Shown: positions 825-31,160 of the stretch, piece after piece | Position numbering within the stretch: the stretch's first letter is position 1 | Layout: each line of letters opens with the position of its first letter | NCBI GenBank assembly: GCA_009886055.1 | Contig: VFJM01000015.1 | Span: 1 to 42,797, forward strand | Direction of reading: 5' to 3' | Origin: Geobacter sp. | Lineage (GTDB): Bacteria > Desulfobacterota > Desulfuromonadia > Geobacterales > Pseudopelobacteraceae | DNA length: 42,797 nt | Position numbers and translations under genes: made by a program | Notes under the pieces: generated by a model | The model's input: the letters and a program-made list of their open reading frames with translations, nothing else | Databases searched by the model: none | What the model was told of the DNA's origin: nothing

Positions 825-1196
825 ATGAGTAAAAAAATAATTCTTGCCGTTGATGACGAGCCGAATATTTTGATGTCCATCGAGTTTATTTTGGACATGG
901 AGGGGTATGAAGTCCACACGGCGCGGGATGGGGATGAGGCACTGGAAGTTGCCGAACGCGTTCGGCCGGATGTGATCCTGCTGGACATCAACATGCCCCG
1001 CAAAGACGGCTACGAGGTCTGCCGGATCCTTCGGGAACGGGAAAGCATGGCCGGGACAAAGGTGATCATGTTGACGGCCAAGGGGCAGGCCCTCGAAAAG
1101 AAGAAAGGGCTGGAGATGGGGGCGGACGAATATGTAACCAAGCCGTTCAGCGCCGATGAACTGCTCAATACGATTCGAACCTGTATCGAGTCATGA
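825..1196 (+). CDS. Stand-alone response regulator receiver (CheY-like, no output domain)
   Basis: 123 aa. Acidic pocket in ILAVDDEPN, phospho-acceptor context VILLDINMP, and LTAKG / KPF motifs. The stop overlaps the next start as ATGA (1193-1196). Confidence 0.9.
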   Translation: MSKKIILAVDDEPNILMSIEFILDMEGYEVHTARDGDEALEVAERVRPDVILLDINMPRKDGYEVCRILRERESMAGTKVIMLTAKGQALEKKKGLEMGADEYVTKPFSADELLNTIRTCIES

Positions 1197-3364
1197 CCGC
1201 GGTTCAGGAGGAAAAACCCCTCCGTACGGAAAAGAGTCTGCGACGCCGGATGGTAACAGCGCTCTTGTCTCTGGCGCTGCTGCCTCTGTTCGTCGCGATG
1301 GTCGGCCTGTACTTTGTGGTCAGCGACTATGTGGCCGAGATCCAGCGGCTCCAGCCGGCGTCCCAAGTGTACGAGCATTTCAACTCGATGTGCCTCCAGG
1401 TTTCCTTTTTCCTGGTCGTGTTCACCATTCTGATCGCCGCCCTGGCGTGGGAGTTGGCCAACCAGTTCCTCCGTCCTATTCTGAAGATTCGGCGGGGCGC
1501 CGAAATCGTTGCCCGCATCAACCTGAACCACCGGATTGAGCTTGATACCGGGGACGAACTGCAGGAGCTGGCCCTGGAGTTCAACCACATGGCCGAGAAC
1601 CTGGGCAAGGCGTACGACGAGCTCGAAGGGCGTGTGCGTGAAGCGACCCGGACAGTGCAGGAGGAGCGTAATCGCCTGGCTACCGTACTTCGCACCATGG
1701 TCGACGGTGTGGTCGTAGCCAATGAAGCGGCTGAGACGATCCTGATGAATCCGCGGGCACGGATCATTCTGGATCTGGGATATACGTCCGGCATCGGGAG
1801 TCCTCTGTCGCGCATCTTCCCCAGTGATCGTCTCACCTTTCATCTGAAAAGACTGCGCCAGAGATGGGATCAAGGGCGGGAGACGGTAGAGGACGTGCTC
1901 TTTCCGCTCCTGGATGGAAAACTCCTCAAAGGTTCACTTTCGATTGTACCGGGGCCGGGGGGTGAGCGATCCGGATTCCTGCTCGTGTTTCGGGATTTGA
2001 ACAGTAGCGGCGATGAGGGGAAAAATTTTGAAGAGACCCTGCGGGAAATGCCGCTGCTCCTGCGGGGGCCGCTGGCCTCATCCCGCTCGCTGGTCGAGAC
2101 GCTCCAGCGGCACCGGGAGATGCCGGAGGAAAAGCAGATGGCGTTTCTGGATGCCGTTGAGGAGGAGATGAACCGTTTGAGCGAACGGGTTACGGCAATC
2201 GATGATGCCGCCAATGCGGCCCGGAGTTCGCGCTGGCCGGCCATTCCTTCGGACCCCCGCGATCTCATGGAGGAATCACTGCTTTTGGAGCCCGGGACTA
2301 CGGTCGAGATCGAGGAGTACGACACCCCGATTCCTCCTGTGCTGGTCGAACCGTTTTCATGGGTTGCCTCTTTGCGCTGCGTCCTTCAGTGGATCACCCA
2401 GATGAACCTGGAACAGCATTCGATCAGTGCCAACCTGAAGGTTGAGGATGGCACCGTAGTTACAACCTTTCGGGTCGAAGGGCACTTCAATGGCAGCCCG
2501 ACCGGACTGGAATCCCGGGAGGTATGTCCTGCCGGCGAGCCCCCCCTTCCCCTCGGAGAGGCGGTGCGAAGAAACCGGGGTGAGTTGTGGACCAGAACTT
2601 CAGGTGAAGGCCTGGAGGTGCGGCTGGCTCTGCTGCAGGCAAGCACCGCTTCCGAAGGGGATCATCCCGATCGGCTGCTGGATGGCGAACCGGAGTTTTA
2701 CGATTTCGACCTGTTCCTGCCAAGGCCGGTTTTAGAGCGGGCCGACCAGCTCCAGGCGGATTTGAGCGATCTCGAGTACGTCGTGTTCGACACAGAGACC
2801 ACCGGGATGCGGCTCTCCCAGGGGGACAAGGTCATCAGCATCAGCGGGGTCCGCATTCGCCGGGGGCGTATTCAGAACGCCGAGATATTCCACTCCCTGG
2901 TCAACCCCGGCCGTTCAATCCCTCCCGAATCGGTACAGTTTCACCATATCGAGGACCGGATGGTGGCGGATGCACCCTCGATCAGCCAGGTTTACCCGCA
3001 ATTTGTAGAATTTGTCGGCGACTCGATTCTGGTCGCCCATAACGCAGCATTCGACAAGAAATGTCTGGAAATGGCCGCCGCCGAGGCAGGAGTGCCGATG
3101 ATCGAAAACCCGATCCTTGACACCATTTTCCTTTCGCACGGAATCCATGAGAGGACTGAAGGTCACAGCCTCGACGCCACGGCGGAACGGATGGGGATCA
3201 CCATCGAGGGGCGCCATACCTCCATGGGAGACGCCCGTGCCACTGCCCAGATCTTTCTGGGCCTCCTCTCGCTGCTGCCGGGGCGAGGGGTGCGTACCCT
3301 CGCCGAGGCAAAAGCGTTCTGCGACCGCCATCTGCTCATGCGCTGGCAGTCATCGAGATTCTGA
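1193..3364 (+). CDS. Membrane-anchored HAMP-PAS sensor with degenerate histidine-kinase core fused to a DnaQ/RNase T-like DEDDh 3'-5' exonuclease domain
   Basis: 723 aa with two N-terminal hydrophobic helices and a HAMP-like segment (LRPILKIRRGAEIVARINLNHRIELDTGDELQELALEFNHMAENL). A PAS-like segment follows. The DHp-like box PLLLRGPL has Leu where the phospho-His is expected, and the G-boxes are degenerate. The C-terminal exonuclease motifs are intact: VVFDTETTG (ExoI), LVAHNAAFD (ExoII) and HTSMGDA (ExoIII, H-x4-D). Confidence 0.85.
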   Translation: MTAVQEEKPLRTEKSLRRRMVTALLSLALLPLFVAMVGLYFVVSDYVAEIQRLQPASQVYEHFNSMCLQVSFFLVVFTILIAALAWELANQFLRPILKIRRGAEIVARINLNHRIELDTGDELQELALEFNHMAENLGKAYDELEGRVREATRTVQEERNRLATVLRTMVDGVVVANEAAETILMNPRARIILDLGYTSGIGSPLSRIFPSDRLTFHLKRLRQRWDQGRETVEDVLFPLLDGKLLKGSLSIVPGPGGERSGFLLVFRDLNSSGDEGKNFEETLREMPLLLRGPLASSRSLVETLQRHREMPEEKQMAFLDAVEEEMNRLSERVTAIDDAANAARSSRWPAIPSDPRDLMEESLLLEPGTTVEIEEYDTPIPPVLVEPFSWVASLRCVLQWITQMNLEQHSISANLKVEDGTVVTTFRVEGHFNGSPTGLESREVCPAGEPPLPLGEAVRRNRGELWTRTSGEGLEVRLALLQASTASEGDHPDRLLDGEPEFYDFDLFLPRPVLERADQLQADLSDLEYVVFDTETTGMRLSQGDKVISISGVRIRRGRIQNAEIFHSLVNPGRSIPPESVQFHHIEDRMVADAPSISQVYPQFVEFVGDSILVAHNAAFDKKCLEMAAAEAGVPMIENPILDTIFLSHGIHERTEGHSLDATAERMGITIEGRHTSMGDARATAQIFLGLLSLLPGRGVRTLAEAKAFCDRHLLMRWQSSRF

Positions 3365-3432
3365 TCAGTACGTAGAAATTGTTTCGTGAACGTAGTTATC
3401 CTGTTTATAAAGATCCGGGAGGGCATTCAGAT

Positions 3433-3624
3433 ATGAACAAGAGCTCACGCCGACTCGCCGCCCTGTTTGTCCTCGGAATAGCGGCTCTGTACCCCCCCCT
3501 GCTGGGGGCATTTAACCGGCCGGGGAGCTTCCTCGGGATCCCGATTTTGCCTCTCTATCTGTTCACGGCGTGGGTTATGCTGGTAGTGATCAGCTGGATT
3601 CTGGGGAGAGGAGACGAATTGTGA
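3433..3624 (+). CDS. Small two-helix membrane protein, DUF3311-like (symporter-associated mini subunit)
   Basis: The ATG at 3433 is preceded by GGGAGGG. The 63-aa product is MNKSSRRLAALFVLGIAALYPPLLGAFNRPGSFLGIPILPLYLFTAWVMLVVISWILGRGDEL, with two hydrophobic helices. Its stop TGA (3622-3624) overlaps the GTG (3621) of the downstream SSS-kinase. Its position directly upstream of an SSS domain is typical for DUF3311. Confidence 0.6.
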   Translation: MNKSSRRLAALFVLGIAALYPPLLGAFNRPGSFLGIPILPLYLFTAWVMLVVISWILGRGDEL

Positions 3625-6600
3625 ATGAAACCTTCTGGGTTGCCATCTTCAGCATGGGGTATCTCCTGGTATTGTTCGCCATCGCCTATGCCACGGACAA
3701 GGCCAGGGAGAACGGCCGCAGCCTGGTTGACAACCCATGGGTGTACAGCGTTTCTCTCGCCGTCTATTGTACCTCATGGACATTTTACGGCAGCGTGGGG
3801 CAGGCCGCTACCACCGGCCTCGCGTTTCTGCCGATCTACCTCGGCCCCACGCTCATCTTTCTCCTCGGACCGTCCCTGCTCAAACGACTCGTCTCCTTCT
3901 GCCGGGCGGAAGGGGTCACGAGTCTGCCGGACCTGCTTGAGGTCCTGTACGGAAAGGGGTGGGTTCTCGGAGCACTGGCCACCACGGTGATGGTGATCGG
4001 AGTTACCCCGTATATCGGACTCCAGCTTAAAGCGGTAGGGCACACCTTCGACCTGCTTACCGGAAGAAGCGCAGCTTCCGGGATACTCGGCGATGCATCT
4101 TTCTGGGCGGCCCTTGCTCTGTCGATCTTCGCCGGACTTTTCGGGGCACGGAGTCTGGTCGCCTCCGAACGTCACGAAGGGATGGTAGCTGCGGTGGTGT
4201 TCGAGAGCGCTGTCAAGCTGGGGGCATTTCTGGTGATCGGCCTGTATATTACCTTCGGAATAGGCGGCGGCCTGTTACAGGTTTTTGAAAAGGCTCTTGC
4301 TGACCCTGACCTGGCGCGGCTGTTCCTTCTCGGAGAAGGTTCGGGGGTATCGCTGCCGACGTGGGTCACCCTGAGTATCCTCTCCGCTTCAGCCGTAATC
4401 TTTCTCCCCCGCCAATTTCATATGCTGGCCGTCGAGAATGTACAGCAGCGTCACCTCCGTACCGCATCCTGGGCATTTCCGGCCTACCTGCTCCTGATCA
4501 ATGTGCTCGTACTCCCCGTAGCACTGGTCGGGCGGCTGTATGGGGGAGATATGATCCCGGATTTCTACATGATCTCTCTCCCTTTGACGCGGGGACATAC
4601 CGGTTTGGCGTTTCTCGCGTTTCTGGGCGGTTTTTCCGCCGCGACGAGCATGGTTATCGTCGAGGCGGTCGCTCTGTCAACGATGATCCTCCATCATCCC
4701 GGGGTAGCGGTACTGGGTGGTTTTTTCCCCGGATTTCGGAATCTGGTAAACCGTGACGTTTCTGTTCACCTCCTGCACACCAAGCGGGCCGTCATATTTG
4801 GTGTAGTGCTCCTGGGCTACGCCTTCAATCGATCGATCGGCGAGTCGCACACCCTGGTCGCGACAGGATTGTTGTCCTTCTCCGCCATGATCCAGTTTGT
4901 CCCCGCAGTTCTTTTCGGCCTCTTCTGGAAAGGGAGGACCAGAAGCGGAGCCCTCGCCGGGCTTGCCGCCGGGTTCGGCCTCTGGATATACACCCTGCTT
5001 CTGCCCAGCTTCGTCGATTCGGGGTGGATGAGCGAATCGTTTCTGACACAGGGACCCTGGGGAATAGAGCTGCTGCGGCCGCGAGCCCTCTTCGGCCTGC
5101 AGGGTTTTGACACCTGGACGCACGCCATGATCTGGAGCCTGGTATTCAACATGGGGGCCTACTTCACCATCAGCTTCCTTACATCACATCCTGCAGACGG
5201 GATCCAACGGTCCGAACTGCCGGCGGCATGGGCTACCAAGGCCGAACTGGAAGGGCTTCTGACACGGTTTGTGGGTGCCCGGATGGCCCAGGATGTACTG
5301 GGGGCTCTCCCCGATCGTTCATCACCCCAGCTGCTTCTGGAAGCTACCGAGCGCTGTCTGGCCAGTGCCCTGGGAACGCCGTCGGCACACATGATCATCA
5401 ACAGCACACTTGCGTGGCCCCGTGAACATGCGGTGGAGATTCTGGACGTCTTTGGCGGTGTTTCCCAAACGCTGGTGGAGAGTCGGGATGCCCTGGAACG
5501 GCGGCTGCGCGAGTTAATGGTGCTCCATGAGGCTTCACACGCCCTTTCACGGAGCCTGGACATCGACACCCTGCTGCAGGAGGTGCTCATGCTGATCAAG
5601 CGTGAGTTCGGGTTCGAATACCTGGGGGTCCGGCTCCTGGATGAGGATGGTATTTTACGGATCCGCAGCCACGTGGGACTCAGCGAGGAATACGTTATGG
5701 AATCCGCGATGGTCCCCTCACGGGAAACCTACTTCGGCACCTGTTTCCTGGATGCCAGGCCGGTCGTGGTCGGGGACACCCGCGAGATCAACAAGCCGCT
5801 GCTCTTCTCCAAACTGGCCGGAGAAGTTCCGATCAGTGCGTTTATCCATGCACCTATGATCTACGAGGGACGGGTGATCGGGGTACTCACCGCCTATACC
5901 TATCGGGGTCCGATGCACTTCACCGACGAGTTTGTCGAGCTGTTTGCGGCGCTGGCCAACCAACTCGCCATGGCGGCGATCAATGCCCAGCTTTACGGGG
6001 AGGTTCAGGCGTACAGTCTTGCCATGGAGGAAAAAGTGGCCCGGCGTACGGCTGAACTTGAAAAGGCCAATGCCCGCCTCCTGGAACTGGACCGCCTCAA
6101 AAGCGACTTCCTCTCTACGGTCAGCCATGAGTTCCGCACCCCGCTCACCTCAATCCGCTCGTTCTCCGAAATCCTGCTGCGCTACGATGTGGACGATGCG
6201 GAGAAACGCAAGAAATTCGTCGGCATCATCCATAACGAGGCGGAGCGCCTCACCCGCATGATCAACGACCTGCTCGATCTTTCAAAGATCGAAGCCGGGC
6301 GGCTGGAGCTCTTTCCCGAACCGCTGGAACTGAAGCCGGTTTTTGCCAGGGCCATCGGCACCACGCAACCGCTCTTCGCCGAAAAGGGAATCAACGTTGT
6401 CAGCACGGTCGAGCCCTCCCTTCCTCCCGTGTATGCCGACGCGGATCACCTTCACCAGGTGCTGACGAACCTCCTCTCCAACTCCGTTAATTTTTCTCCG
6501 GAGGGGGGGACGGTACGGCTCAGCGGGATGAATAAAGAGGGCTTTGCCCTGATCAGCGTGGCGGACGAAGGGCCTGGCATCCCGCCGGACAAGCTGGAGC

Positions 6601-6797
6601 AGATCTTCGAGCGCTTTCACCAGGTAAGGGACCCACAAAAGTCCCATCCGCTCGGCACCGGACTGGGGTTGACAATCTCGCGGGAGATCGTCGATAACAT
6701 GGGCGGGAATATCTGGGTCGAAAGCGAGTTGGGAGGCGGTGCGGTGTTCTTCTTCACCTTGCCTTTGGCAGCAGAGTCACCGGCCACTGAAGCCTGA
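3621..6797 (+). CDS. Sensor histidine kinase with N-terminal sodium:solute symporter (SSS/SLC5) domain, STAC-like linker, GAF, HisKA and HATPase_c domains (CrbS/CbrA-like architecture)
   Basis: The first ~500 aa hold about 13 hydrophobic segments with SSS-like motifs (e.g. FLGGFSAATSMVIVE). A GAF-like region follows (LDIDTLLQEVLMLIKREFGFEYLGVRLLDEDG...). The H-box is STVSHEFRTPLTSI with His at 6126-6128, and N/G1/G2 boxes are present (NLLSNSVNF, DEGPGI, GTGLGLTIS). I chose the GTG start at 3621 because of the GTGA coupling and the upstream GGGGAGAGGAG. The ORF-track start at 3570 would overlap the small gene by 55 nt. Confidence 0.85.
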   Translation: MNETFWVAIFSMGYLLVLFAIAYATDKARENGRSLVDNPWVYSVSLAVYCTSWTFYGSVGQAATTGLAFLPIYLGPTLIFLLGPSLLKRLVSFCRAEGVTSLPDLLEVLYGKGWVLGALATTVMVIGVTPYIGLQLKAVGHTFDLLTGRSAASGILGDASFWAALALSIFAGLFGARSLVASERHEGMVAAVVFESAVKLGAFLVIGLYITFGIGGGLLQVFEKALADPDLARLFLLGEGSGVSLPTWVTLSILSASAVIFLPRQFHMLAVENVQQRHLRTASWAFPAYLLLINVLVLPVALVGRLYGGDMIPDFYMISLPLTRGHTGLAFLAFLGGFSAATSMVIVEAVALSTMILHHPGVAVLGGFFPGFRNLVNRDVSVHLLHTKRAVIFGVVLLGYAFNRSIGESHTLVATGLLSFSAMIQFVPAVLFGLFWKGRTRSGALAGLAAGFGLWIYTLLLPSFVDSGWMSESFLTQGPWGIELLRPRALFGLQGFDTWTHAMIWSLVFNMGAYFTISFLTSHPADGIQRSELPAAWATKAELEGLLTRFVGARMAQDVLGALPDRSSPQLLLEATERCLASALGTPSAHMIINSTLAWPREHAVEILDVFGGVSQTLVESRDALERRLRELMVLHEASHALSRSLDIDTLLQEVLMLIKREFGFEYLGVRLLDEDGILRIRSHVGLSEEYVMESAMVPSRETYFGTCFLDARPVVVGDTREINKPLLFSKLAGEVPISAFIHAPMIYEGRVIGVLTAYTYRGPMHFTDEFVELFAALANQLAMAAINAQLYGEVQAYSLAMEEKVARRTAELEKANARLLELDRLKSDFLSTVSHEFRTPLTSIRSFSEILLRYDVDDAEKRKKFVGIIHNEAERLTRMINDLLDLSKIEAGRLELFPEPLELKPVFARAIGTTQPLFAEKGINVVSTVEPSLPPVYADADHLHQVLTNLLSNSVNFSPEGGTVRLSGMNKEGFALISVADEGPGIPPDKLEQIFERFHQVRDPQKSHPLGTGLGLTISREIVDNMGGNIWVESELGGGAVFFFTLPLAAESPATEA

Positions 6798-6803
6798 CAT
6801 ACC

Positions 6804-7907
6804 ATGCCTGATCAATCCAGCCCCAGGATGGCCCATGTGAATCCGAATCTCAGGCTTGACATGCTCGGTCATGAAATAGAGTCCGCCCGCACCATCGGCG
6901 CCCTGCGGGAGATCTGCCGGGGAATGCACGATACCGTGCGCGCAACCCTCGGTTCGGGGCTGGACACAAGAGAGATCGTGCAGATGATCTCCCGTTTGAA
7001 CGGTGCCATTACCCAGCGGATGATTGCCGTCATGGAACTCGACGAGGGTATCACCCTTCCCGGAGAAGCCGCCGTCCTCGCCCTTGGCAGTGAGGGACGG
7101 GAGGAACAGACCGTGCGCACCGACCAGGACAATGCGATTGTCTATGCCGACGACATCCCGCAGGAAAAACTCGGCACTGTGGAACGCTTCGCCATCCGTT
7201 TTGTGGAGGCCCTCGAAACAATCGGCGTTCCCCGCTGCCCTGGCAACATCATGGCCAGCAATCCACTCTGGCGCGACAGTATTTCCGGGTGGAAGTGCCG
7301 CCTTAACCACTGGATCACCGCTCCGACCAAGGAGCACGTGCTGAATTTCGGCATATTCCAGGACCTGCGCCCCCTGCACGGCAACCGACAGTTGGGAATC
7401 CAGCTGCGTGATCATATTCGCAACACCGTCCATAACACCATCTTCTTTTTCCCCAACATGGCCTCCCATGCCGTGCGCTTCCCGTCACCGCTTACCCTGT
7501 TCGGGCGTATCCGTGTCGAAAGGAGCGGTCAGCACAAAGGCGAGGTCGATATCAAGAAGGCCGGCATCTTTGCAATTACCGTAGGATCCAGCCTGTTGGC
7601 GCTCGAAATCGGTCATATGGGGGGGAACACCTGGGAAAAGCTGGAACTGCTCGGCAGGACAAGATTGATCAGCCCGAGAGACCTCGAGTCCATCAGTGAG
7701 GCGTTCTCATTCCTGGTGAAACTCAGGATTCGGCAGCAACTCCGTCAGATGCAGGAGCTGCCATCCGGCGTCATACCTTCGAATTACGTCGATCCGCTCG
7801 CTTTAACTGCCAGCGAACGGGACCAATTCCGCCAGGCCCTCAAGGGGGTAAACACGTTCCTGGGGATAGTTCGCAGCCACTACAAACTTGATTTCATCTC
7901 CACGTGA
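6804..7907 (+). CDS. DUF294-family putative nucleotidyltransferase (Pol-beta fold, GlnD/GlnE-like) with DUF294_C domain; lacks the usual cNMP-binding/CBS N-terminus
   Basis: 367 aa. NTase signature LALGSEGREEQTVRTDQDNAIVY (G-S-x9-D-x-D). Downstream motifs are typical of the family (CPGNIMASNPLWR, FGIFQDLRPLHG). It starts 6 nt after the kinase stop. Confidence 0.8.
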   Translation: MPDQSSPRMAHVNPNLRLDMLGHEIESARTIGALREICRGMHDTVRATLGSGLDTREIVQMISRLNGAITQRMIAVMELDEGITLPGEAAVLALGSEGREEQTVRTDQDNAIVYADDIPQEKLGTVERFAIRFVEALETIGVPRCPGNIMASNPLWRDSISGWKCRLNHWITAPTKEHVLNFGIFQDLRPLHGNRQLGIQLRDHIRNTVHNTIFFFPNMASHAVRFPSPLTLFGRIRVERSGQHKGEVDIKKAGIFAITVGSSLLALEIGHMGGNTWEKLELLGRTRLISPRDLESISEAFSFLVKLRIRQQLRQMQELPSGVIPSNYVDPLALTASERDQFRQALKGVNTFLGIVRSHYKLDFIST

Positions 7908-8298: not shown

Positions 8299-9693
8299 TT
8301 ACTTCGGCAGACCCGGCTCGGTCAGATGCTCCGGCTGCATGATCTTGTCCAGCTCACGAGGTGACATCAACTCCTGCTCCAGCACGATTTCACGGATGCT
8401 CCTGCCGCTGGCGACCGATTCCTTGGCGATGGCAGCCGAGGCGTTATAGCCGATGTATGGAGCCAGCACCGTCACCAGTCCAAGCGAATCCTCCAGATAC
8501 CGGCGACAGCGCACTTCGTTGGCCGTTATTCCATTTATACAGGATTCGGTGAATTTCTGCACGCAATTCTTGAGTATTTCCATTGAAAACGTCAGGTTCC
8601 AGGATATAAGCGGCATCATCACATTCAGCTCCAGCTGCCCCGCCTGGGCCGCCAGCAGCACCGCCTGATCGCACCCCATTACCTGGAAGCAGACCATGTT
8701 GGCCATCTCGGCCATGGAGGGATTGATCTTGCCCGGCATGATCGATGAACCGGGCTGGATGGCGGGGAGGCGGATTTCATCCAGACCGGTGCGGGGGCCC
8801 GAAGCCAGCAGGCGGAGGTCGTTTGCAATCCGGCCAAGGTTGACCGCGGTACGGCGGAGGGACGATGAAAGAGCCAGAAAGGGGTCCATGTTCTGCATCG
8901 CCTCGAACAGGTCGGGGGAGGCGACCAGCGGAAAACCGGTGGCAACGGTCAGCTCTTCGATCATGGCCGTGATATAGGCCGGTTCGGCATTCAGGCCGGT
9001 TCCAACGGCGGTGCCGCCGATCCCCACTTCCAGCAGGGCCGGGATACACCCCTCCAGCCCCTCCCGGTTCTTGCGGATCGCTACGGCGTATGCGCCGAAC
9101 TCCTGTCCCATCCGGATCGGGACGGCGTCCTGCAAGTGGGTGCGCCCCGACTTGAGGATATGATCGAACTCACCCGCCTTGGCGGCCAGGGCCAGCTCCA
9201 GCCCTTCAAGCACCTCAAGCAGCGGATCGAGCATCTCCAGAGACGCCAGACGGATGGCTGTCGGGATGACATCGTTGGTGGATTGGGCCATATTGACGTG
9301 GTCATTCGGGTGGAGGGTGGAGAAATCGCCCCTCTGGCGCCCCAGAAGTTCCAGCGCACGGTTGGCGAGCACCTCGTTGGCGTTCATGTTGTGAGACGTT
9401 CCGGCACCGGCCTGAAAGGGATCTACCACGAACTGGTCGGCGAGTTCCCCGGTCAGCACCTCATCGGCAGCGGCCATAATAGCGGTGCCGATTTCTGAAG
9501 GCAGCCTGCCGGTGGACATGTTGGCCTTTGCGGCGCACTTCTTGATGATCACGGTTCCCCAGACATAGGCCCGGTGCGGCTTCAAGCCCGAGATCGGGAA
9601 ATTATGCACGGCCCGGGCGGTCTGCGCCCCGTAATAGGCCTCAGCCGGAACGTGCATCTCCCCCATGGAATCTTTTTCAATGCGTGTGGTCAT
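8299..9693 (-). CDS. aspA: Aspartate ammonia-lyase (class II fumarase/aspartase superfamily)
   Basis: Motifs include GSSIMPGKINPSMAEM (SS-loop, closer to the aspartase NPVM form than the fumarase NPTQC form), AQSTNDVIPTA and GRTHLQDAVPIRMGQEF. The N-terminus is MTTRIEKDSMGEMHVPAEAYYGAQT. I chose the start at the ATG (complement of 9691-9693), 7 nt after GGAGG. The ORF-track start at 9756 is an upstream extension. Confidence 0.8.
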   Translation of the reverse strand: MTTRIEKDSMGEMHVPAEAYYGAQTARAVHNFPISGLKPHRAYVWGTVIIKKCAAKANMSTGRLPSEIGTAIMAAADEVLTGELADQFVVDPFQAGAGTSHNMNANEVLANRALELLGRQRGDFSTLHPNDHVNMAQSTNDVIPTAIRLASLEMLDPLLEVLEGLELALAAKAGEFDHILKSGRTHLQDAVPIRMGQEFGAYAVAIRKNREGLEGCIPALLEVGIGGTAVGTGLNAEPAYITAMIEELTVATGFPLVASPDLFEAMQNMDPFLALSSSLRRTAVNLGRIANDLRLLASGPRTGLDEIRLPAIQPGSSIMPGKINPSMAEMANMVCFQVMGCDQAVLLAAQAGQLELNVMMPLISWNLTFSMEILKNCVQKFTESCINGITANEVRCRRYLEDSLGLVTVLAPYIGYNASAAIAKESVASGRSIREIVLEQELMSPRELDKIMQPEHLTEPGLPK

Positions 9694-9984
9694 GATCATA
9701 CCTCCACAATGTAATAATATCCTGCTATCACTATGACAGATTAGATGCAAGTGCAATCCTGCACAAATCGCCTCATTTCGGCTCGCTAAATCCTGTGGCA
9801 GACCCCGTTAATTTTGCGACTGACGTCTCCGGAGCAAGGAAATTGGCCGCTTCTTTCGGCCATACCATGCCCACCAACTTATAAGGTCAATGCTAAATAA
9901 GCACTTCCGTGATCCCTATCACATCGTTACTGGCCTTTTTCAGCTATAACTCAGACACAGAATTTGCAGCACATTAGCATGCCT

Positions 9985-10060
9985 AGACGATAATACTAAA
10001 CCATTCGTGAGAATGGGACGGAAAGCCTACTGGGTCTCACCGAGACAGCCGGGTCGCCGA
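9985..10060 (+). promoter_or_regulatory. GEMM-I cyclic-dinucleotide riboswitch aptamer (A20 variant, candidate 3',3'-cGAMP-selective GEMM-Ib)
   Basis: ACUAAACCAUUCGUGAGAAUGGGACGGAAAGCCUACUGGGUCUCACCGAGACAGCCGGG aligns with my remembered Vc2 consensus GGGCAAACCAUUCGAAAGAGUGGGACGCAAAGCCUCCGG... The P2 hairpin CCAUUC-GUGA-GAAUGG has a GNRA loop, the junction reads GACGGAAAGCC, and a second hairpin GUCUC-ACC-GAGAC follows. The position equivalent to G20 is A (9995). The neighbouring pair covaries, G21-C46 becoming C(9996)-G. Confidence 0.7.
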
Positions 10061-10096
10061 AATATCATGAGAGATATTCGGTCCCCGGTTTTTTTG
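10049..10096 (+). terminator. Rho-independent terminator, expression platform of the riboswitch
   Basis: CCGGG-UCG-CCGAAAUAUC-AUGAGA-GAUAUUCGG-UC-CCCGG is followed by U7 (10089-10095). Its 5' arm overlaps the 3' end of the aptamer, so aptamer closure and terminator formation should be mutually exclusive. Confidence 0.6.
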
Positions 10097-10149
10097 TGCC
10101 GCAACGCCCCCGGGTGCTGAAAGTGGCACATGCTAAAAAAGGAGAACAC

Positions 10150-10635
10150 ATGAGAAGATTCGTTAGAAGTACATTCATCACCTTTACCGCACTGACCTTT
10201 ATGGTTGCTGGACTGATGCTGGCCGGTTGCGGCTCCGGAGGAGGGTCGTCTCAGGACGCCTCTGTTGGAACCCCGCTGGCCGGACAGGCGAGCCTTGCCG
10301 GGCAGGCGTCTCCCGATCCGAACAGTGCCGGTGTAAGCCCGGCTCCGGCCACAGCTACAACCACAACCACAGCTACAGCTACAACCAGTGCGCCCGTCTC
10401 CAAGCAGCTGACCCTGGCCTGGGACCAGGCTGCCGGCGCCACCTCCTATAATCTGTACTGGTCAACCGTTCCGGGGGTCACCCCCACCAACGGGACAAAG
10501 ATCAGCAGTGTCAGCTCCCCTTATGTTCATACCGGCCTGGCCGCCGGCACCAGCTATTATTACGTCGTCACGGCCGTCGACAGCACCAGCGAAAGTATTG
10601 CCTCTGCCCCGGCCTCGGGGGCCACGCCATTGTGA
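10150..10635 (+). CDS. Secreted lipoprotein with Ala/Thr-rich linker and fibronectin type III-like domain
   Basis: ATG at 10150 after AAAGGAGAA. Signal peptide plus lipobox in MRRFVRSTFITFTALTFMVAGLMLAGC. The C-terminal sequence LTLAWDQAAGATSYNLYWSTVPGVTPTNGTKISSVSSPYVHTGLAAGTSYYYVVTAVD is FnIII-like. Confidence 0.75.
   Translation: MRRFVRSTFITFTALTFMVAGLMLAGCGSGGGSSQDASVGTPLAGQASLAGQASPDPNSAGVSPAPATATTTTTATATTSAPVSKQLTLAWDQAAGATSYNLYWSTVPGVTPTNGTKISSVSSPYVHTGLAAGTSYYYVVTAVDSTSESIASAPASGATPL
10351..10386 (+). repeat. Imperfect hexanucleotide tandem repeat (ACAGCT/ACAACC x6) encoding a TATTTTTATATT linker
   Basis: Read directly as acagct acaacc acaacc acagct acagct acaacc, inside the lipoprotein CDS. 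Confidence 0.8.
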
Positions 10636-10703: not shown

Positions 10704-10738
10704 CCAGAGGGCTCCGTTCAGCGGAGCCCTCTGGTTTT
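10704..10738 (+). terminator. Rho-independent terminator of the lipoprotein gene
   Basis: A 13-bp perfect stem, CCAGAGGGCTCCG / CGGAGCCCTCTGG, with a 5-nt loop, followed by TTTT. Confidence 0.8.
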
Positions 10739-10774
10739 ATTCAACCTTGATTATTACGGGGCCAGGCTTCCAAG

Positions 10775-20258: not shown

Positions 20259-22172
20259 TCACCGTCTGCGCAGGAAGCGTTTATCCCCTGCTCTCACCGT
20301 TATTTTAAGTGAATCAAAATATTCAAGAACCGGAATCATGAATTTTCGGGAGAGTCCCGTTATTTCCCTGAATTCTGCCGGGGTTATCTCCCCCCTGGCT
20401 CGGAGATATTCGACCATGGTCTCCGATATCACCTGCAACGGGGCGGGTGCGTAGAACAGGTCATTCTTTACCTTGACGGCACGCCCCTGCCGGACAAGAA
20501 GGCTCAGGTGTTCAATAACGGTTTTCTCCGGAAGCACGAGCATATCGCACAATTCCTTCACCGTCGGAGGTTCGGCCCCGCTGCCCATCAGCATCTCCTC
20601 CAGTTGCTGCTGAATATCGACATTGCTCTGAGCAACGCCACCTGTTCTTCCCGGCAGCCTGACCTGGTCCCGGTCCGCCACAACTCTCTTTTCGTTTTCA
20701 AGGTACTGCAGGCATTGGCCGAAGAATCGCGCGTCACTCCGGGCCGGAATCCTGGTTTTCAACTCCTCCCTGCTGATGCCGTCCTTTATGGGGTTATTGA
20801 CCAGATATGTTTCAATTCTGCCCAGCAGAATGTCACAGAGATTGTGGAAGCTGTCACGCCCCAGGAAAATACGCGGATCGCGAACCATCTGGATCACCCT
20901 TCCCGACGAGAGGGGGAGGGAAAGTGCCGCATCCAGGCGTTTTGCCGATAATCCGCTGCGCAGGAGAAGATCCTGGAAGGAAATCCCCGAGAGCAGCGAC
21001 GCAGCGACAAGACGCTCTGTCATTTCCGGTTCATCGCCAAGGGACATAGACTCCAGGATGGCGAGCGCCTCAGCCGACCGCCGACGTCTCCGTGGCGGAG
21101 ACGGGTCCAGAATAGTTCCCCCGCCGACCGTTTGTGAGGGGGAATAGCTGCGCAGCACGAATGGGTCACCGTTTAACAGCAGAACCGGGGTTGCAAGACG
21201 CAGCTGGGCGAAGGCGCTCTCCCCCGGCTCAAGGCTCATCTTGTCCAGCAGGATAACCTGCGCCGAAACTTCGTATGTCGCCGAATGCAGACGGAGGGTT
21301 GAACGGTGCTTGAGCGGCCGCTCAGCCGACTTCAGGCAGGTAATCTCGACATCGACGGTTCTGGTCGCCCTGTAGAGCCCACGGGGGGCCACGACATCGC
21401 CGCGCTCTGCCTGATTGTTGTCAACGCCCTGAAGGTTGAGGGCGAGACGTTGTCCGGCGTAACCGACATCAGCCTTGCTGCCGTGGGCCTGGATGCCCCG
21501 TATTTTCGTGCATATTCCTGACGGCAACAGCTCGACTTCATCGCCAACCCTGATCTGGCCGGACAAGAGGGTGCCGGTGACAACCGTGCCGAATCCGGCA
21601 ACCGTGAACGCCCGGTCAACCGGAAGACGGAAGGGTCCGTCACTCCTCTTCTGATCGACCCGACCAGCCATCTTCCGCAGCTCTTCCTTCAGCTGTTCGA
21701 CTCCCGTACCCCGGCGTGCCGAGACCGGAACTACCGGCGCCCCCTCCAGAAAACTCCCGGCGACAAAGTCCCGGACCTCCTCAGTCACCAGTCCAAGCCA
21801 CTCCGGATCAACCAGATCACACTTTGTCAGGGCGATGAGCCCCTGCTTCACCCCGAGCAGACGGCAGATATCGAGGTGTTCGCGCGTCTGCGGCATTACC
21901 CCCTCATCGGCCGCGATCACCAGCATGACCATGTCCATACCGCCAACACCGGCCACCATGGCGCGGACAAACCTCTCGTGCCCCGGGACATCAACAATGC
22001 CGAGCTGAATGTCCCCGGGCAGCAGCAGATTGGCGAATCCGAGTTCAATGGTTATGCCACGGGCCTTCTCTTCAGGAAGCCGATCCGTATCGACTCCGGT
22101 CAGCGCCTTGACCAGTGATGTTTTGCCATGGTCGATATGTCCGGCGGTACCGAGGATGAGGTTCTTTGTCAT
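20259..22172 (-). CDS. selB: Selenocysteine-specific translation elongation factor SelB
   Basis: The GTPase N-terminus reads [42 protein letters not shown] and DVPGHERF. The long C-terminal extension has winged-helix (SECIS-binding) character. The start overlaps the selA stop as ATGA. Confidence 0.95.
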
Positions 22173-23554
22173 GGAAATATGCTCATGGCATCAACGAGAG
22201 CGGGAATGTCGGCATCCTGAAGTGTGCGGAGATCAAGCAGGTACTGTCCCTTCTGAATCCTCCCCAGCACCGGTATTTTGCGCTCCCTGAAAGCCGCATC
22301 TATCCCCTGGGGGGACCACCCTTCAACGCTGATTGCCATGAGGAACGTCGGCAGATCCAGCAGCGGCAGGGAACCGCCACCAACCTGGGAGTCACCGGCA
22401 ACCACCGTGAGGCTGACCGATGCAGGTATTTTGGCCCGAAGCCGGCGAATCCAGGCCGCAGCTTTTGCTTTCAGCGCCGCCGGTTGCAGCGTCAACATGC
22501 GCAACGTGGGTATCTCAGCCACCGCCTCTCTTTCATCCCGGTACAATCTCAAGGTCGCTTCAAGCGCTGCAAGTGTCAGCTTGTCAATCCTGACGGCTCT
22601 TAAGAGCTGCTCTTTTCTCAGTTTGGCAACAAAACTCCGCTTTCCGAGGATGATGCCGGCCTGCGGCCCGCCGAGCATCTTGTCACCACTGCAGGTTACG
22701 ATATCAACGCCCGCCTTCAGATACTCCTGCACCGGAGTCTCGCCGGTTATGCCGTACCGGGAGAGGTCAAGCAGGGAGCCGCTGCCGATATCGGCCATGA
22801 CCGGAATATCCGCCTCCCTGCCGCACCGGACGAGTTGATCAATGGAGACCTCTGCCGTAAACCCGACTACCGAAAAATTGCTGGTATGAACCTTGAGAAG
22901 CAGGGCCGTTTCCGGAGAAATGGCGGTTTGATAATCCTTCAGATGGGTGCGGTTTGTGGTTCCGACCTCCTTCAATATGCCGCCACTCAACCTCATGACG
23001 TCTGGAATTCTGAACGACCCGCCAATCTCGACAAGTTCACCCCGTGAAACCACAACCTCTTTGCCCGCCGCTATCCCTGAAAGGGCCAGCAGGACCGCCG
23101 CGGCATTATTGTTGACGACAAGCGCCGCTTCAGCCCCTGTCAGTTCGCAGAGGAGCGACTCAACGTGAACATAGCGCTCTCCGCGTTCACCTGTCGCCAT
23201 GTCCATCTCCAGGTTCGAGTACCTCTCCGCAACCTCCAGCATCTGCCGGCATGCGGATTTTGCAAGGAGTGAACGCCCAAGGTTGGTATGAACCACGACG
23301 CCGGTACCGTTTACAACAGGGTGAAGAGCGGGAGCAACGATCTGTTCCAGCTCTGTCACGATCAACCCGCAGAGTTGGCTCTCGTCAAGCGCTGCCGCCA
23401 GCTTGCCGTCTACCGAATCAACCCTGAGTGCTGCCAGAACATTCCGTACCGCCGCAAGCACCGTCGGCCGGGGATGCGTTTCAAGGAGTGAAATCAGGGG
23501 TGGAAGAGACAACACTTTATCAACCCCGGGAATTGAACAGATGACTTTCTTCAT
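22169..23554 (-). CDS. selA: L-seryl-tRNA(Sec) selenium transferase SelA
   Basis: The N-terminus is [16 protein letters not shown]. The PLP-lysine context is [14 protein letters not shown]. Start at the ATG (complement of 23552-23554), 7 nt after GGAG. The track start at 23572 is an upstream GTG. Confidence 0.95.
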
Positions 23555-23731
23555 AATGAACTCCAGAAACACCGCTATTTAAAAAGACTGTTTATCAATT
23601 GCATTCACACATCTTGAGTGTGCTAACTTCACGGATATATCAGTTCAATGAAGACATGGCAAGAAACTGCATCAGATTACATGCATGAGCAGCAGCGAAA
23701 CCGATATAAAAAATGCTGGTATGAATAAGAC

Positions 23732-23760
23732 TTGTGCGGACCGGAACCAACAGGTATAAA
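23732..23760 (+). promoter_or_regulatory. Candidate sigma70 promoter for tRNA-Sec
   Basis: TTGTGC (23732-23737), a 17-nt spacer, and TATAAA (23755-23760). It lies about 70 nt upstream of the tRNA 5' end. Confidence 0.3.
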
Positions 23761-23831
23761 TAGTGAAGAGCGCACGTATGGTTGCTTTACGCTGAATGGC
23801 TCGTTTTTAAACTTTTGCCATCGTTGCCAAT

Positions 23832-23929
23832 GGAAGTACGTCAGTCGCTGGCGGGCTGCCCGGTCTTCAAAACCGGTGGGGTGGATGAGAAATTCGCTCG
23901 GTGGGTTCGATTCCCATGTACTTCCGCCA
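23832..23929 (+). tRNA. selC: tRNA-Sec (anticodon UCA)
   Basis: An 8-bp acceptor stem GGAAGUAC/GUACUUCC, discriminator G and encoded CCA. The anticodon loop CUUCAAA has UCA at 23867-23869. A long variable arm and a 5-bp T stem GUGGG/CCCAU with loop UUCGAUU give the 8/5 architecture typical of bacterial tRNA-Sec. Confidence 0.9.
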
Positions 23930-27581: not shown

Positions 27582-27690
27582 TATGAAGTGAACCTGCAAC
27601 CGATCATATCGGAATCTTTGGAATAATTAAACACAAATATGAATACACCGTTTGCAGAAATTCTGTTGTTAGCAAGTTATTAAACGTATC

Positions 27691-27775
27691 CATCTCCGAG
27701 CCGCACCAGCCTAAGGAAACGGATTCTATGGCATGCGGCCTGCGGGTAACGCCGGAAACGGCGCTGCCCTCCTTT
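27691..27775 (+). promoter_or_regulatory. Structured 5' leader RNA with GAAA tetraloop and 11-nt tetraloop receptor; candidate Moco/Tuco (molybdenum/tungsten cofactor) riboswitch
   Basis: CUCCGAGCC lies at 27694-27702. Hairpin 27701-27738 holds the canonical receptor halves CCUAAG (27710-27715) and UAUGG (27727-27731) on opposite strands. Hairpin 27744-27769 (GGGUAAC-GCCG-GAAA-CGGC-GCUGCCC) has its GAAA loop at 27755-27758. The 3' tail CCUCCUUU is complementary to the fdnG SD. Confidence 0.45.
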
Positions 27776-27983
27776 AGTGAGTTAGATGTTATTTTCTGCT
27801 TTGTTTAGTACGGTAGAAATTATTTATGCGGTTTTTTGCAGAAATGATTTTGTTAGCGTACTTATCCAATTTATTGGGACCGGCAGAAATCACTTCGTGA
27901 ACGAACTATCCTGTCTATGCGGGATGAAAAGGAGATGGTTGGCATCGGTAACGATTACAACCATTTTAAAAGGAGGTACAGCA

Positions 27984-30900
27984 ATGGCGGTATCACGTAG
28001 AGATTTTTTCAAACTCTCCGGTTCCGGGCTTGCGGTTGCCACCCTCGGTTTCAACCTCGCTCCAGTCGAGGCCAAAGCAGAGGATCTGGCTATCCGCTAT
28101 GCCAAAGAGACCACCAGCATCTGTCCGTACTGCGCAGTCGGTTGCGGCATGATTGTGCATACGCTTGGTGGCAACATTATCAACATTGAGGGTGACCCTG
28201 ATCATCCGATCAATGAGGGGGCACTCTGCCCGAAAGGCTCTTCGGCGTATCAATTGCGTGATAACAAGGCGCGCTTGACCAAACCGCTCTATCGAGCGGC
28301 TGGAGCAACCGAGTGGCAAGAGGTTTCCTGGGATTGGGCCGTTGACGAGATAGCCAAGAAGGTTAAAAAAACCCGCGACACCAGTTTCGTGGCGACTTCA
28401 AAGATCAAGATCAAGGAAAAGATCGGTAATGCCGAGGTTGAAAAAGAGATTGAAGCGGTCGTCAACCGTACCATGGGTATCGCATCTGTCGGCAGTGCCG
28501 CCATGGATAATGAAGAGTGTTATCTGTACCAAAAATTCTTACGGGGGTTAGGCCTGGTGTATATAGAACATCAGGCCCGCATTTGACACAGCGCAACAGT
28601 TGCGGCTCTGGCAGAGTCGTTCGGACGCGGTGCAATGACGAACCACTGGATTGATGTAAAGAACTCTGATGTAATCCTTATCATGGGGGCAAACCCCGCT
28701 GAAAATCACCCGATCTCCTTCCGCTGGATCATGAAAGCAAAGGATGCCGGCGCAAAGGTAATTGTCGTTGATCCCCGCTTTACGCGCAGCGCCTCAAAGG
28801 CGGATCTGTATGCTCCGCTCCGCTCAGGAACCGATATTGCGTTTCTGGGAGGGATGATCAATTACATTCTGCAGAACAAACTTCATTTCGAAGAATATGT
28901 CAAAAATTATACCAACGCCGCATATCTGGTAAATGCCGACTTCAAAATGCCGGGTGAACTGAACGGCCTCTTTTCCGGCTATGACCCGAAAAAACGGAGC
29001 TACGATCCCAAGGCGTGGTCATTTCAGAAAAATGCTGATGAATCGATCAAGAAAGATCCGGGTTTGCAGGATCCCCATTGCGTTTTCCAGTTGATGAAGA
29101 AGCATTACTCCCGCTATACGCCAGAACTGGTCAGCAGAATTACCGGCACACCAAAGGATAAACTTCTGGAAGTATATACGCTCTATTCGTCTACCGGAAA
29201 GCCGGACAAGGCGGGTACGGAGCTGTATGCCATGGGGTGGACCCAGCACACGGTTGGCACCCAAAACATCCGTGCCATGTCCATTATCCAGCTTCTTCTG
29301 GGCAACATCGGAATCGCCGGCGGTGGAATAAACGCGTTGCGCGGAGAGGGAAATGTTCAGGGGTCTACCGACCAGGGGCTGCTGTTCCACATCCTCCCCG
29401 GCTACATGCCGGTGCCGTCGGCTGATCTGCCGTCCACGACTGCCTACATCGAGAAAAACACCCCCACATCCAAGGACCCGCAAAGTGCCAACTGGTGGGG
29501 GAACCGCAACAAATACCTGATCAGCTACCTAAAGGCGATTTATGGCGCCAAGGCGACCAAGGAGAACGATTTCGGCTACAACTGGCTTCCCAAGCTGGAT
29601 CCGGGGATGAACGGGTCGTGGCTGATGATCTTTGACAATATGATCAAAGGCAAGTTCAAGGGTTTCTTTGCCTGGGGGCAGAACCCCGCCTGTTCCGGGT
29701 CTAATACAACCAAAGTGAGAAATGCTCTTGCGAAGCTGGATTGGATGGTAGCGGTTAATCTGTTTGATAATGAAACCGCCTCATTCTGGAAAGGGCCGGG
29801 CGTTGATTCTGCATCGGTCAAGACGGAAGTTTTTTTACTCCCTGCTGCCGCTTCTTTTGAAAAAGAGGGGAGTATTTCCAATTCCGGGCGCTGGGCGCAG
29901 TGGCGTTATAAAGCGGTAAGCCCGCTTGGCCAGAGTAAACCGGATGCCGAAATCATCCATGAGCTGTACCAGAAGCTGAAGGGTATGTATGCCAAAGAGG
30001 GGGGGGCGTTGCCGGAACAGTTAACAAATCTTACCTGGAACTATGGCTTTAAGCGGGCCGATGGCACGGTCAAAAACGTTGATGTTCATGCCGTTGCCAA
30101 GGAAATCAACGGCTATTTCCTTGAGGATGTGGAGGATAAGCCGAAACTGAAACCTGGTGAAAAGGCTCCGCCACCACCTCCACCAGGAACACCTAAAAAA
30201 ATGCTCGGTAAAAAGGGTGAGTTGACAGCCGGTTTTGCCCAGCTGCAGGCCGATGGCAGCACCTCCTGCGGCAACTGGATCTACAGCCAGAGTTACAACG
30301 AAAAAGGGAATATGATGGCTCGTCGTGGCAAGAAGGATCCGACCGGGCTTGGCATGTTTCCGGAGTGGAGTTGGTGTTGGCCGGTCAACCGGCGCATTAT
30401 CTATAACCGCGCTTCCTGCGATGTTAACGGTAAACCGTTTAACCTGAAAAAAGCTGTTGTGTACTGGAATCCGGATGCACCACTTCCGAACGGCAAAACA
30501 GGCGCCTGGGTCGGGGACGTGCCGGATGGACCATGGCCGCCGATGGCACATGAAAAAGAGGGTAAAAAGCCTTTTATCATGCGTGCTGACGGAGTTGCTG
30601 CGATTTTTGGCCCCGGCCTGAAGGATGGGCCTTTCCCGGAACATTATGAGCCGATGGAATGTCCGATTCCCGAAAATCTCATGTCCAAACAGATGAACAA
30701 TCCTGCGGTAAAAATTTTCAAGGACACACATGTAAAAGAAGATGTGCTGGCGTCCAACGATGCGCGCTTCCCGCTGGTTGCTACTACCTATCGGGTAACA
30801 GAACATTGGCAGACCGGAGTTATGACTCGCAACACCCCGTGGCTTCTGGAGTTGCAGCCGCGTCAATTCTGTGAGATCAGCGTTGAACTTGCCAAGGAAA

Positions 30901-31160
30901 CAGGGATCAACAACGGCGATATGGTAGAGATATCGTCAGCCCGTGGCAAGATAGACGCTGTTGCCATGGTCACTCCTCGCTTTAAGCCATTTAAAATTGG
31001 TGACAAGATTGTTCATCAAATAGGTATGCCCTGGTGCTTCGGATGGCACACCCCCGGCGTGGGAGACGCCGCTAATCTGCTGACCCCCACTGCGGGTGAC
31101 GCCAACACGATGATTCCCGAGACCAAAGCCTTTATGGTCGGAATCGCGAGAAAGGGGTAA
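27984..31160 (+). CDS. fdnG: Formate dehydrogenase catalytic (alpha) subunit, Mo/W-bis-PGD, selenocysteine-containing, Tat-exported
   Basis: AGGAGG precedes the ATG at 27984. The Tat signal is MAVSRRDFFKLSG. The 4Fe-4S motif is CPYCAVGCGM. An in-frame TGA at 28584-28586 sits in the context EHQARI-U-HSATVAALAESFGRGAMTNHW, the conserved Sec site of FdnG/FdhF-type enzymes. The two ORF-track pieces (27786-28586 and 28635-31160) are in the same frame. Confidence 0.9.
28603..28619 (+). promoter_or_regulatory. Candidate bacterial SECIS upper stem-loop
   Basis: CGGCUCU-GGC-AGAGUCG (7 bp including one G-U) starts 17 nt after the UGA, with a G-rich apical loop. The exact SelB-binding geometry is not verifiable by eye. 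Confidence 0.45.

Follow-up and report, generated by a model that had tools for sequence, protein, structure and literature searches.

The analyzed stretch of DNA, in the following called the window, comprises 42,797 nucleotides and contains a gene for a 161-amino-acid lipoprotein at 10150-10635, as an earlier sequence-only reading had proposed for the region downstream of a predicted riboswitch. The protein consists of a signal peptide, an LAGC lipobox, a Thr/Ala-rich linker and a single fibronectin type III (FnIII) domain, for which the Pfam fn3 match (E 3e-4) stays under the gathering score. Upstream of the lipoprotein gene and divergent from it lies a gene for an aspartase/fumarase-class lyase. 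Since the lipoprotein gene is followed by a strong terminator of its own, the riboswitch and the lipoprotein gene form a monocistronic unit.

An exact-protein look-up with the 161-aa lipoprotein returned no match, and the only exact match to the neighboring HerA-like protein was a 2.7-kb Logan contig. Orthologues of the lipoprotein with 60-75% identity are present in MAGs labelled Desulfuromonadaceae or delta proteobacterium, and several of them are annotated as fn3. The lipoprotein shares the post-lipobox motif SSQ..ASVG.PLAGQ.SL with multi-FnIII paralogues of 530-800 amino acids (L003:1387, L083:3294, L086:3460), and it looks like a shortened version of this long form that has kept the leader and one FnIII repeat. 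Such FnIII lipoproteins plausibly act at the cell surface or in attachment when the cells grow on particles.

The wider neighborhood includes genes of selenium and formate metabolism. A Moco/tungsten riboswitch (RF01055, 41.5 bits) precedes the gene for a formate dehydrogenase alpha subunit within 27683-31160. This gene was listed as two open reading frames, which are in fact a single frame interrupted by the selenocysteine codon TGA at 28584-28586 (ARI*HSATV), and it is followed by genes for an Fe-S subunit, a cytochrome b, and FdhE-like, MobA-like and MoaA-type radical-SAM proteins. The selenocysteine machinery is clustered at 20259-23925, with selB (20259-22172, minus strand), selA (22169-23572, minus strand) and tRNA-Sec (23832-23925, plus strand, 70.9 bits). 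The region 1193-7907 encodes an unusual 723-aa protein with HAMP and PAS domains and a C-terminal RNase T/DEDD exonuclease domain, next to a 1075-aa GAF histidine kinase and then a DUF294 nucleotidyltransferase. The window SelA is 80-93% identical to proteins from Desulfuromonadaceae/Geobacteraceae MAGs, 68% to that of Geobacter pelophilus and 62% to that of G. metallireducens, and the DNA runs containing the window sequence are freshwater-sediment and groundwater metagenomes.

A search of the whole window with cmscan and Rfam 15 gave three matches above the gathering scores, one of which is the c-di-GMP-I (GEMM-I) family RF01051. It covers the complete model (1-87 of 87) on the plus strand with an E value of 5.9e-6, and its score exceeds the gathering score of 35 bits, which confirms the GEMM-I core that had been proposed from the sequence and for which a covariance-model search had been suggested. 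The features of the locus are as follows:

9908-9923, no strand assigned: CRP-type palindrome CGTGATCCCTATCACA, a putative activator site centered at about -41.5, with conserved position and presumed function
9944-9950, plus strand: near-invariant CTATAAC with the putative -10 box TATAAC at 9945-9950, 96% conserved versus 48-58% for its neighbors
9978-10069, plus strand: full aptamer including the proposed P1, 96% identity among orthologues, P1 register by analogy with pilM
9985-10061, plus strand: RF01051 c-di-GMP-I (GEMM-I) match, 45.9 bits, full model
9995, plus strand: A at the position of Vc2 G20 (corresponding to A13 of pilM and A14 of Gs1761), from the RF01051 alignment
9996-9997, plus strand: C21 and U22, the 5' side of the junction-closing pairs, C-G and U·G in 17/17 sequences
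10001-10016, plus strand: P2 hairpin CCAUUC-GUGA-GAAUGG with a GNRA loop, from the RF01051 alignment and RNAfold
10020-10024, plus strand: G45 and G46 (pairing with U22 and C21), then AAA, from the RF01051 alignment and invariant in the family alignment
10025-10055, plus strand: P3 with GCC/GGU, UGG/CCG, GUCUC-ACC-GAGAC and an AG bulge, 81-93% of cells paired in the family, distal stem conserved
10057, plus strand: C at the position of Vc2 C92 and pilM C75, the Watson-Crick partner of the ligand G, from the alignment to pilM
10049-10095, plus strand: intrinsic terminator with stem 10049-10066/10073-10088 (15 bp with bulges), loop AUGAGA and U7 at 10089-10095, from RNAfold
10114-10129, plus strand: small hairpin GUGCU-GAAAGU-GGCAC in the interval between terminator and ribosome-binding site, counterparts in orthologues as judged by eye
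10140-10144, plus strand: Shine-Dalgarno sequence AGGAG, 5 nt ahead of the ATG, conserved in orthologous leaders
10150-10635, plus strand: FnIII lipoprotein gene, 161 codons of open reading frame
10704-10741, plus strand: terminator of the lipoprotein gene, a 13-bp GC-rich stem followed by UUUUAUU, read from the sequence

The covariance-model alignment places A9995 at the unpaired model position 11, which corresponds to Vc2 G20; this equivalence was established by counting G20-G21-C22-AAA along the RF01051 model. Both the assignment of A9995 and the P2 hairpin with the adjoining junction GGGACGGAAAGCC agree with what had been read from the sequence, and the 3' GCCGAA is likewise found in the window aptamer. 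The element thus carries several GEMM-I hallmarks: P2 with a GNRA loop, P3, a junction of the ACGCAAAGCC type, and equivalents of A47 and C92. The A47 equivalent is A10022 according to the same alignment, and A47 of Vc2 is the intercalating adenine.

The two pairs closing the junction deviate from the RF01051 consensus, which has G-C and C-G at these positions: in the window, model pair 12:37 (Vc2 G21-C46) is C9996-G10021 and model pair 13:36 is U9997·G10020. The flipped first pair had been taken as compensatory covariation supporting the alignment. The pair itself is real, but it is a fixed trait of the family (17/17) and does not provide independent covariation evidence for the alignment. 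P1 can only be drawn as a discontinuous helix (CAUG 9978-81/10066-69, UA 9984-85/10063-64 and CG 9988-89/10058-59), and its register is presumptive. The CG/CG segment pairs in 17/17 and UA/UA in 16/17 family members, with no covariation. C9983 forms a C·U mismatch in the window where the closest relatives have G·U, so that the P1 drawn here is somewhat weaker than theirs.

Loci of relatives were collected from species-representative genomes and by exact-protein look-up, and 17 sequences were aligned, i.e., the window and 16 relatives of the Geobacter group including pilM of G. metallireducens. The riboswitch is located ~150-185 nt upstream of every orthologous gene that was fetched (L002, L081/82, L083, L084/85, L086). 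L083 and L086 have another copy in front of the following gene, which encodes a multi-FnIII lipoprotein of 529-534 amino acids, and L008, L009 and L030 show tandem riboswitches before FnIII lipoproteins of 770-800 amino acids. The genetic surroundings change from locus to locus: the window has aspA and herA, whereas other loci have an HSP70-like gene or cobS together with a histidine phosphatase. The unit of promoter, riboswitch and gene therefore behaves as a cassette.

Segment identities were calculated as means relative to the window across nine aligned leaders. The aptamer (9978-10069) reaches ~96%, compared with 32% for the upstream sequence, 48% for the leader 5' of the aptamer and 55% for the leader after the terminator; the flanks as a whole range from 32 to 58%, and the lipoprotein itself is 60-75% identical. 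Because this level of identity is found upstream of all fetched orthologues while the adjacent leader has diverged, the element stands beyond chance, and the pattern appears as the clear footprint of strong purifying selection on the aptamer. Within the 17 sequences, A20 is present in 16, pilM included, and C21-G46 and U22·G45 are found in all. P2 is paired in 100% of the family and shows compensatory changes from UA to CG at 30:37 (7 sequences) and at 29:38. Double changes in the aptamer are confined to these two pairs, and the terminator shows none. Such sparse covariation results from the near invariance of the sequences, and it is therefore the Rfam model and the conservation that support the structure.

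An aptamer 95% identical to that of the window occurs in a cultured isolate, Geomobilimonas luticola JCM 17780 (L005:4593-4669), which makes this strain a practical organism for experiments on this aptamer. The gene behind it encodes a 429-aa secreted protein with two CXXCH heme motifs and repeated FG-GAP-like units. Many distinct contigs from wetland and soil metatranscriptomes align with the aptamer (9984-10066) before continuing into terminators of their own, and one 183-nt contig spans 9973-10140 and thereby crosses the terminator. These matches show that the aptamer family is expressed in nature, and nothing beyond that: as what the contigs match is limited to the conserved aptamer of numerous relatives, depth across the terminator is uninformative about termination here.

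The 3' end of the aptamer overlaps an intrinsic terminator. RNAfold predicts for 9985-10100 a minimum free energy of -39.3 kcal/mol (z = -2.9) with 10049-10088 as one long bulged hairpin, which is formed by the arms CCGGGUCGCCGAAAUAUC and GAUAUUCGGUCCCCGG and on its own has a predicted energy of -19.0 kcal/mol. The overlap and the U7 tail had both been recognized from the sequence; the U-run ends at 10095, one base before the end given there (10096). A consensus terminator scan of 9300-10500 did not pick up this terminator because its stem contains bulges. The 5' arm of the hairpin is composed of CCGGGUC, the 3' strand of P3, followed by GCCGAA, which includes C10057, and AUAUC, the 3' strand of P1. 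In the terminator fold, C10057 pairs with G10081. For 9977-10096, the terminator fold has a predicted energy of -33.3 kcal/mol versus -15.9 kcal/mol for the ligand-free aptamer fold, and in folding of truncated transcripts the growing RNA flips to the terminator once 10082-10088 are present. According to these calculations, the two folds are mutually exclusive and termination is the default, as expected for an ON switch. A hairpin followed by a U-tract is found at the equivalent place in 17/17 family members despite differing loops and 3' arms.

Translational control was also considered and dropped: the Shine-Dalgarno sequence is located 45 nt past the terminator and shows no evident pairing to the aptamer. 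In the orthologous leaders, hairpins comparable to the one at 10114-10129 have GNRA-like loops and altered stem sequences.

Based on these observations, the element is in our view probably a transcriptional ON switch of the GEMM-Ib (3',3'-cGAMP) class that controls a monocistronic FnIII surface lipoprotein gene in an uncultured member of the Desulfuromonadaceae/Geobacteraceae. Transcription would begin near 9957, and the aptamer with P1, P2 and P3 would be complete by about 10066-10069. If cGAMP is bound, A9995 would read its adenine, C10057 would pair with its guanine and A10022 would intercalate. P1 and P3, held by the ligand, would leave the terminator unable to nucleate, and polymerase would continue past it into the lipoprotein gene, which begins at 10150. 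In the ligand-free state, hairpin 10049-10088, being the more stable fold, would capture C10057 together with the 3' strands of P3 and P1, and polymerase would terminate at the U7 run.

The sequence upstream of the aptamer contains a second candidate for regulation. The palindrome at 9908-9923 has the family consensus TGTGAT-N4-ATCACA and fits the CRP consensus of E. coli, TGTGA-N6-TCACA. Across nine orthologous leaders, GTGAT does not vary, nor does most of the ATCACA half-site, and the palindrome is located at -87 to -93 from position 20 in every FnIII leader (window, L002, L003 and L081-L086), four of which have a second copy ~50 bp further upstream. It is absent from other GEMM-Ib leaders, whose promoters show TTGAC-type -35 boxes. 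In the window by itself, the motif is not significant (1 site found with one mismatch allowed, 1.01 expected); since this count is at chance level, only the conserved position argues for a function. The CTATAAC element follows 20 nt downstream, and the palindrome is centered 29.5 nt upstream of the start of the -10 hexamer, which corresponds to class-II (-41.5) geometry and would put the transcriptional start site at about 9957. A σ70 consensus scan of 9300-10500 detected no -35/-10 pair. The sequence TTGCAG..TAGCAT, also upstream of the aptamer, was considered as a σ54 promoter and discarded because it lacks the GG at -24 and is unconserved.

The class-II distance between the palindrome and the putative -10 box suggests a second regulatory input. 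In a literature search, no report of a CRP-type site of this kind in Geobacter came up, and we know of no promoter-level partner described for any GEMM-Ib regulon. We tentatively propose, as a possibility that is doubtful at present, that the FnIII-lipoprotein cassette is a two-input gate in which a CRP/FNR-family activator would act on initiation and the cGAMP riboswitch on elongation. If so, production of the lipoprotein would require cGAMP and, at the same time, a signal of the cyclic-mononucleotide or redox type.

The same promoter elements could be taken to mean that control is exerted at the promoter only, by way of the CRP-type site, with the aptamer being a conserved relic or structural leader and the terminator a constitutive attenuator. 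The conservation of the palindrome and the -10 box would fit this explanation, as would the much higher predicted stability of the terminator fold compared with the ligand-free aptamer. Nevertheless, we regard it as very improbable: conservation of the aptamer extends to all ligand-contacting positions, whereas identity in the adjacent leader falls to 48-55%, the overlap between terminator and aptamer is kept in all 17 sequences though loop and 3' arm vary, and homologous leaders are proven switches (PMC6456294, PMC9262584).

The GEMM-Ib ON switch, which we continue to favor, raises the question of its ligand. In this class, the A equivalent to G20 reads the adenine of cGAMP (PMC6140456, PMC6456294), and an A20G exchange switches the GEMM-Ib riboswitch of Gmet_0970 to c-di-GMP selectivity (Hallberg, Chan et al. 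2019, PMC6456294). Deletion of gacA, encoding the cGAMP synthase, lowers all GEMM-Ib-controlled transcripts in G. sulfurreducens and increases termination near the riboswitch (PMC6456294). The A20 had been interpreted as a signature of cGAMP-selective GEMM-Ib variants. By itself, however, A20 does not guarantee selectivity, since the G20A variant of Vc2 binds both ligands about equally (c-di-GMP 53 nM, cGAMP 120 nM; PMC6140456), and Cbe 1-2 and some natural Geobacter members, such as the omcST leader, respond to both (PMC6140456, PMC6456294). Binding of c-di-GMP by GEMM-Ib RNAs is possible through protonated A20 (Keller et al. 2018, PMC6140456). What backs the interpretation for the window is the similarity to the cGAMP-binding pilM riboswitch, with which its aptamer core is identical at 69/79 positions (87%), including exactly the same P2 base and junction sequence. 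We therefore consider a preference for 3',3'-cGAMP over c-di-GMP likely from the sequence.

These data also define a competing explanation, in which fold and ON mechanism are the same but the riboswitch is bispecific or mainly c-di-GMP-responsive in vivo: protonated A20 would pair with a G of c-di-GMP, and the lipoprotein gene would track this second messenger. The dual binding of Vc2 G20A, Cbe 1-2 and the natural members is compatible with it. The selectivity of Gs1761 ranges from ~3-fold to ~1200-fold depending on construct, P1 and buffer, indicating that P1 stability matters, and with a stabilized P1 it is only ~3-fold (PMC6140456). Moreover, selectivity can be shifted by mutations outside the pocket, according to Ren 2015 as cited in PMC9262584. 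On the other hand, the close relationship to pilM and the effect of the gacA deletion on every GEMM-Ib-controlled transcript of G. sulfurreducens speak for cGAMP. The same contig region of the L003 MAG that carries a copy of the window-type riboswitch (L003:1227-1303, A20) also contains a canonical GEMM-I on the minus strand (L003:6213-6287; G20, G21-C46, C22-G45; 53.3 bits). Both types therefore coexist in one genome, which suggests that they are kept for two signals. Altogether, a c-di-GMP-dominated or bispecific switch appears rather unlikely to us.

With respect to the source of the proposed ligand, no GGDEF domain was detected in the 30 window ORFs that were scanned. A cGAMP synthase is nonetheless likely in the host, which we assume from its affiliation with the Desulfuromonadaceae/Geobacteraceae, the group in which cGAMP made by GacA controls GEMM-Ib regulons (PMC6456294).

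A different arrangement is found in L008 (MAG Geobacteraceae bacterium SMAG_U430), where tandem riboswitches, each with its own terminator, precede a gene for a multi-FnIII lipoprotein of 771-799 amino acids. The first (L008:966-1041) has G20 in a GEMM-Ib-type scaffold (C21-G46, U22·G45), and the second (L008:1159-1235) has A20. Judged from these signature positions, the tandem may represent a natural two-input leader for c-di-GMP and cGAMP.

The element adds a further member to a riboswitch class that is already published, and the kind of gene it precedes is published as a target as well; as such it contains no new biology. It extends the cGAMP-riboswitch regulon of Geobacter to an uncultured Desulfuromonadaceae lineage from freshwater sediment and presents a tightly conserved aptamer variant that travels together with a family of FnIII lipoproteins as a cassette of promoter, riboswitch, gene and terminator. 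Its use is in annotation and in the choice of new cGAMP sensors, and knowledge of the class is unchanged. The only leads past published knowledge are the CRP-type site, with its hint of combined control by a transcription factor and a riboswitch, and the G20 variant in the L008 tandem.

Among characterized riboswitches, the closest to the window element is that of pilM, the sequence of which was taken from the supplement of Landgraf et al. 2022 (PMC9262584). The two share the blocks AAUACUAAACC, GGGACGGAAAGCCUAC, GAGACAGCCGGG and GCCGAAAUAUCA, and they agree in the A that replaces G20, in the GNRA loop of P2 and in the C-G and U·G pairs that close the junction. Given this homology, the window element is a sequence-level homologue of known cGAMP switches and not merely an A20 variant. 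The similarity extends to the expression platform. The pilM RNA binds cGAMP and is a terminator-type ON switch, the terminator of which sequesters the ligand-pairing C75 (PMC9262584). Its terminator 5' arm also starts at GCCGGG and pairs the ligand-contacting C, and the arrangement of GCCGGG, GCCGAA and AUAUC within this arm is identical in pilM and the window. In pilM, the last nucleotide of the full aptamer is number 84, the C of AUAUC. Transcripts that have reached a length of 102 no longer bind, as G102 then pairs with C75, and P1 requires ligand to form (PMC9262584). The two elements differ in the downstream gene (the pilM operon versus the FnIII lipoprotein), in the 5' strand of P1 (GAUAU versus CAUG..UA..CG with a mismatch in the window), in loop and 3' arm of the terminator, and in the promoter, where the window carries the CRP-type site. 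The host lineages differ as well, as reflected by the ~62% SelA identity.

The GEMM-Ib regulon of G. sulfurreducens, including Gs1761/pgcA (structure 4YAZ) and the GSU1945 leader, belongs to the same class and follows the same logic as proposed for the window: cGAMP made by GacA relieves termination, and the regulated genes encode extracellular or surface proteins. GSU1945 carries the annotation fibronectin type III domain protein and is listed among the GEMM-Ib/GEMM-I-controlled transcripts (PMC8835794, PMC10599522), so that an FnIII-domain target of GEMM-Ib is already precedented with regard to the kind of target, orthology aside. The window protein is the short, single-FnIII form, and its relatives also have multi-FnIII forms of 530-800 amino acids behind the same riboswitch.

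The more distant Vc2 riboswitch of Vibrio cholerae matches the same RF01051 model and shares with the window the three-helix architecture, the GNRA-capped P2 and the equivalents of A47 and C92. It differs in having G20 and G21-C46, where the window has A and the flipped pair. Vc2 binds c-di-GMP and discriminates against cGAMP (Kd ~10 µM), and it is described as a translational OFF switch, whereas the platform in the window is that of a terminator-type ON switch.
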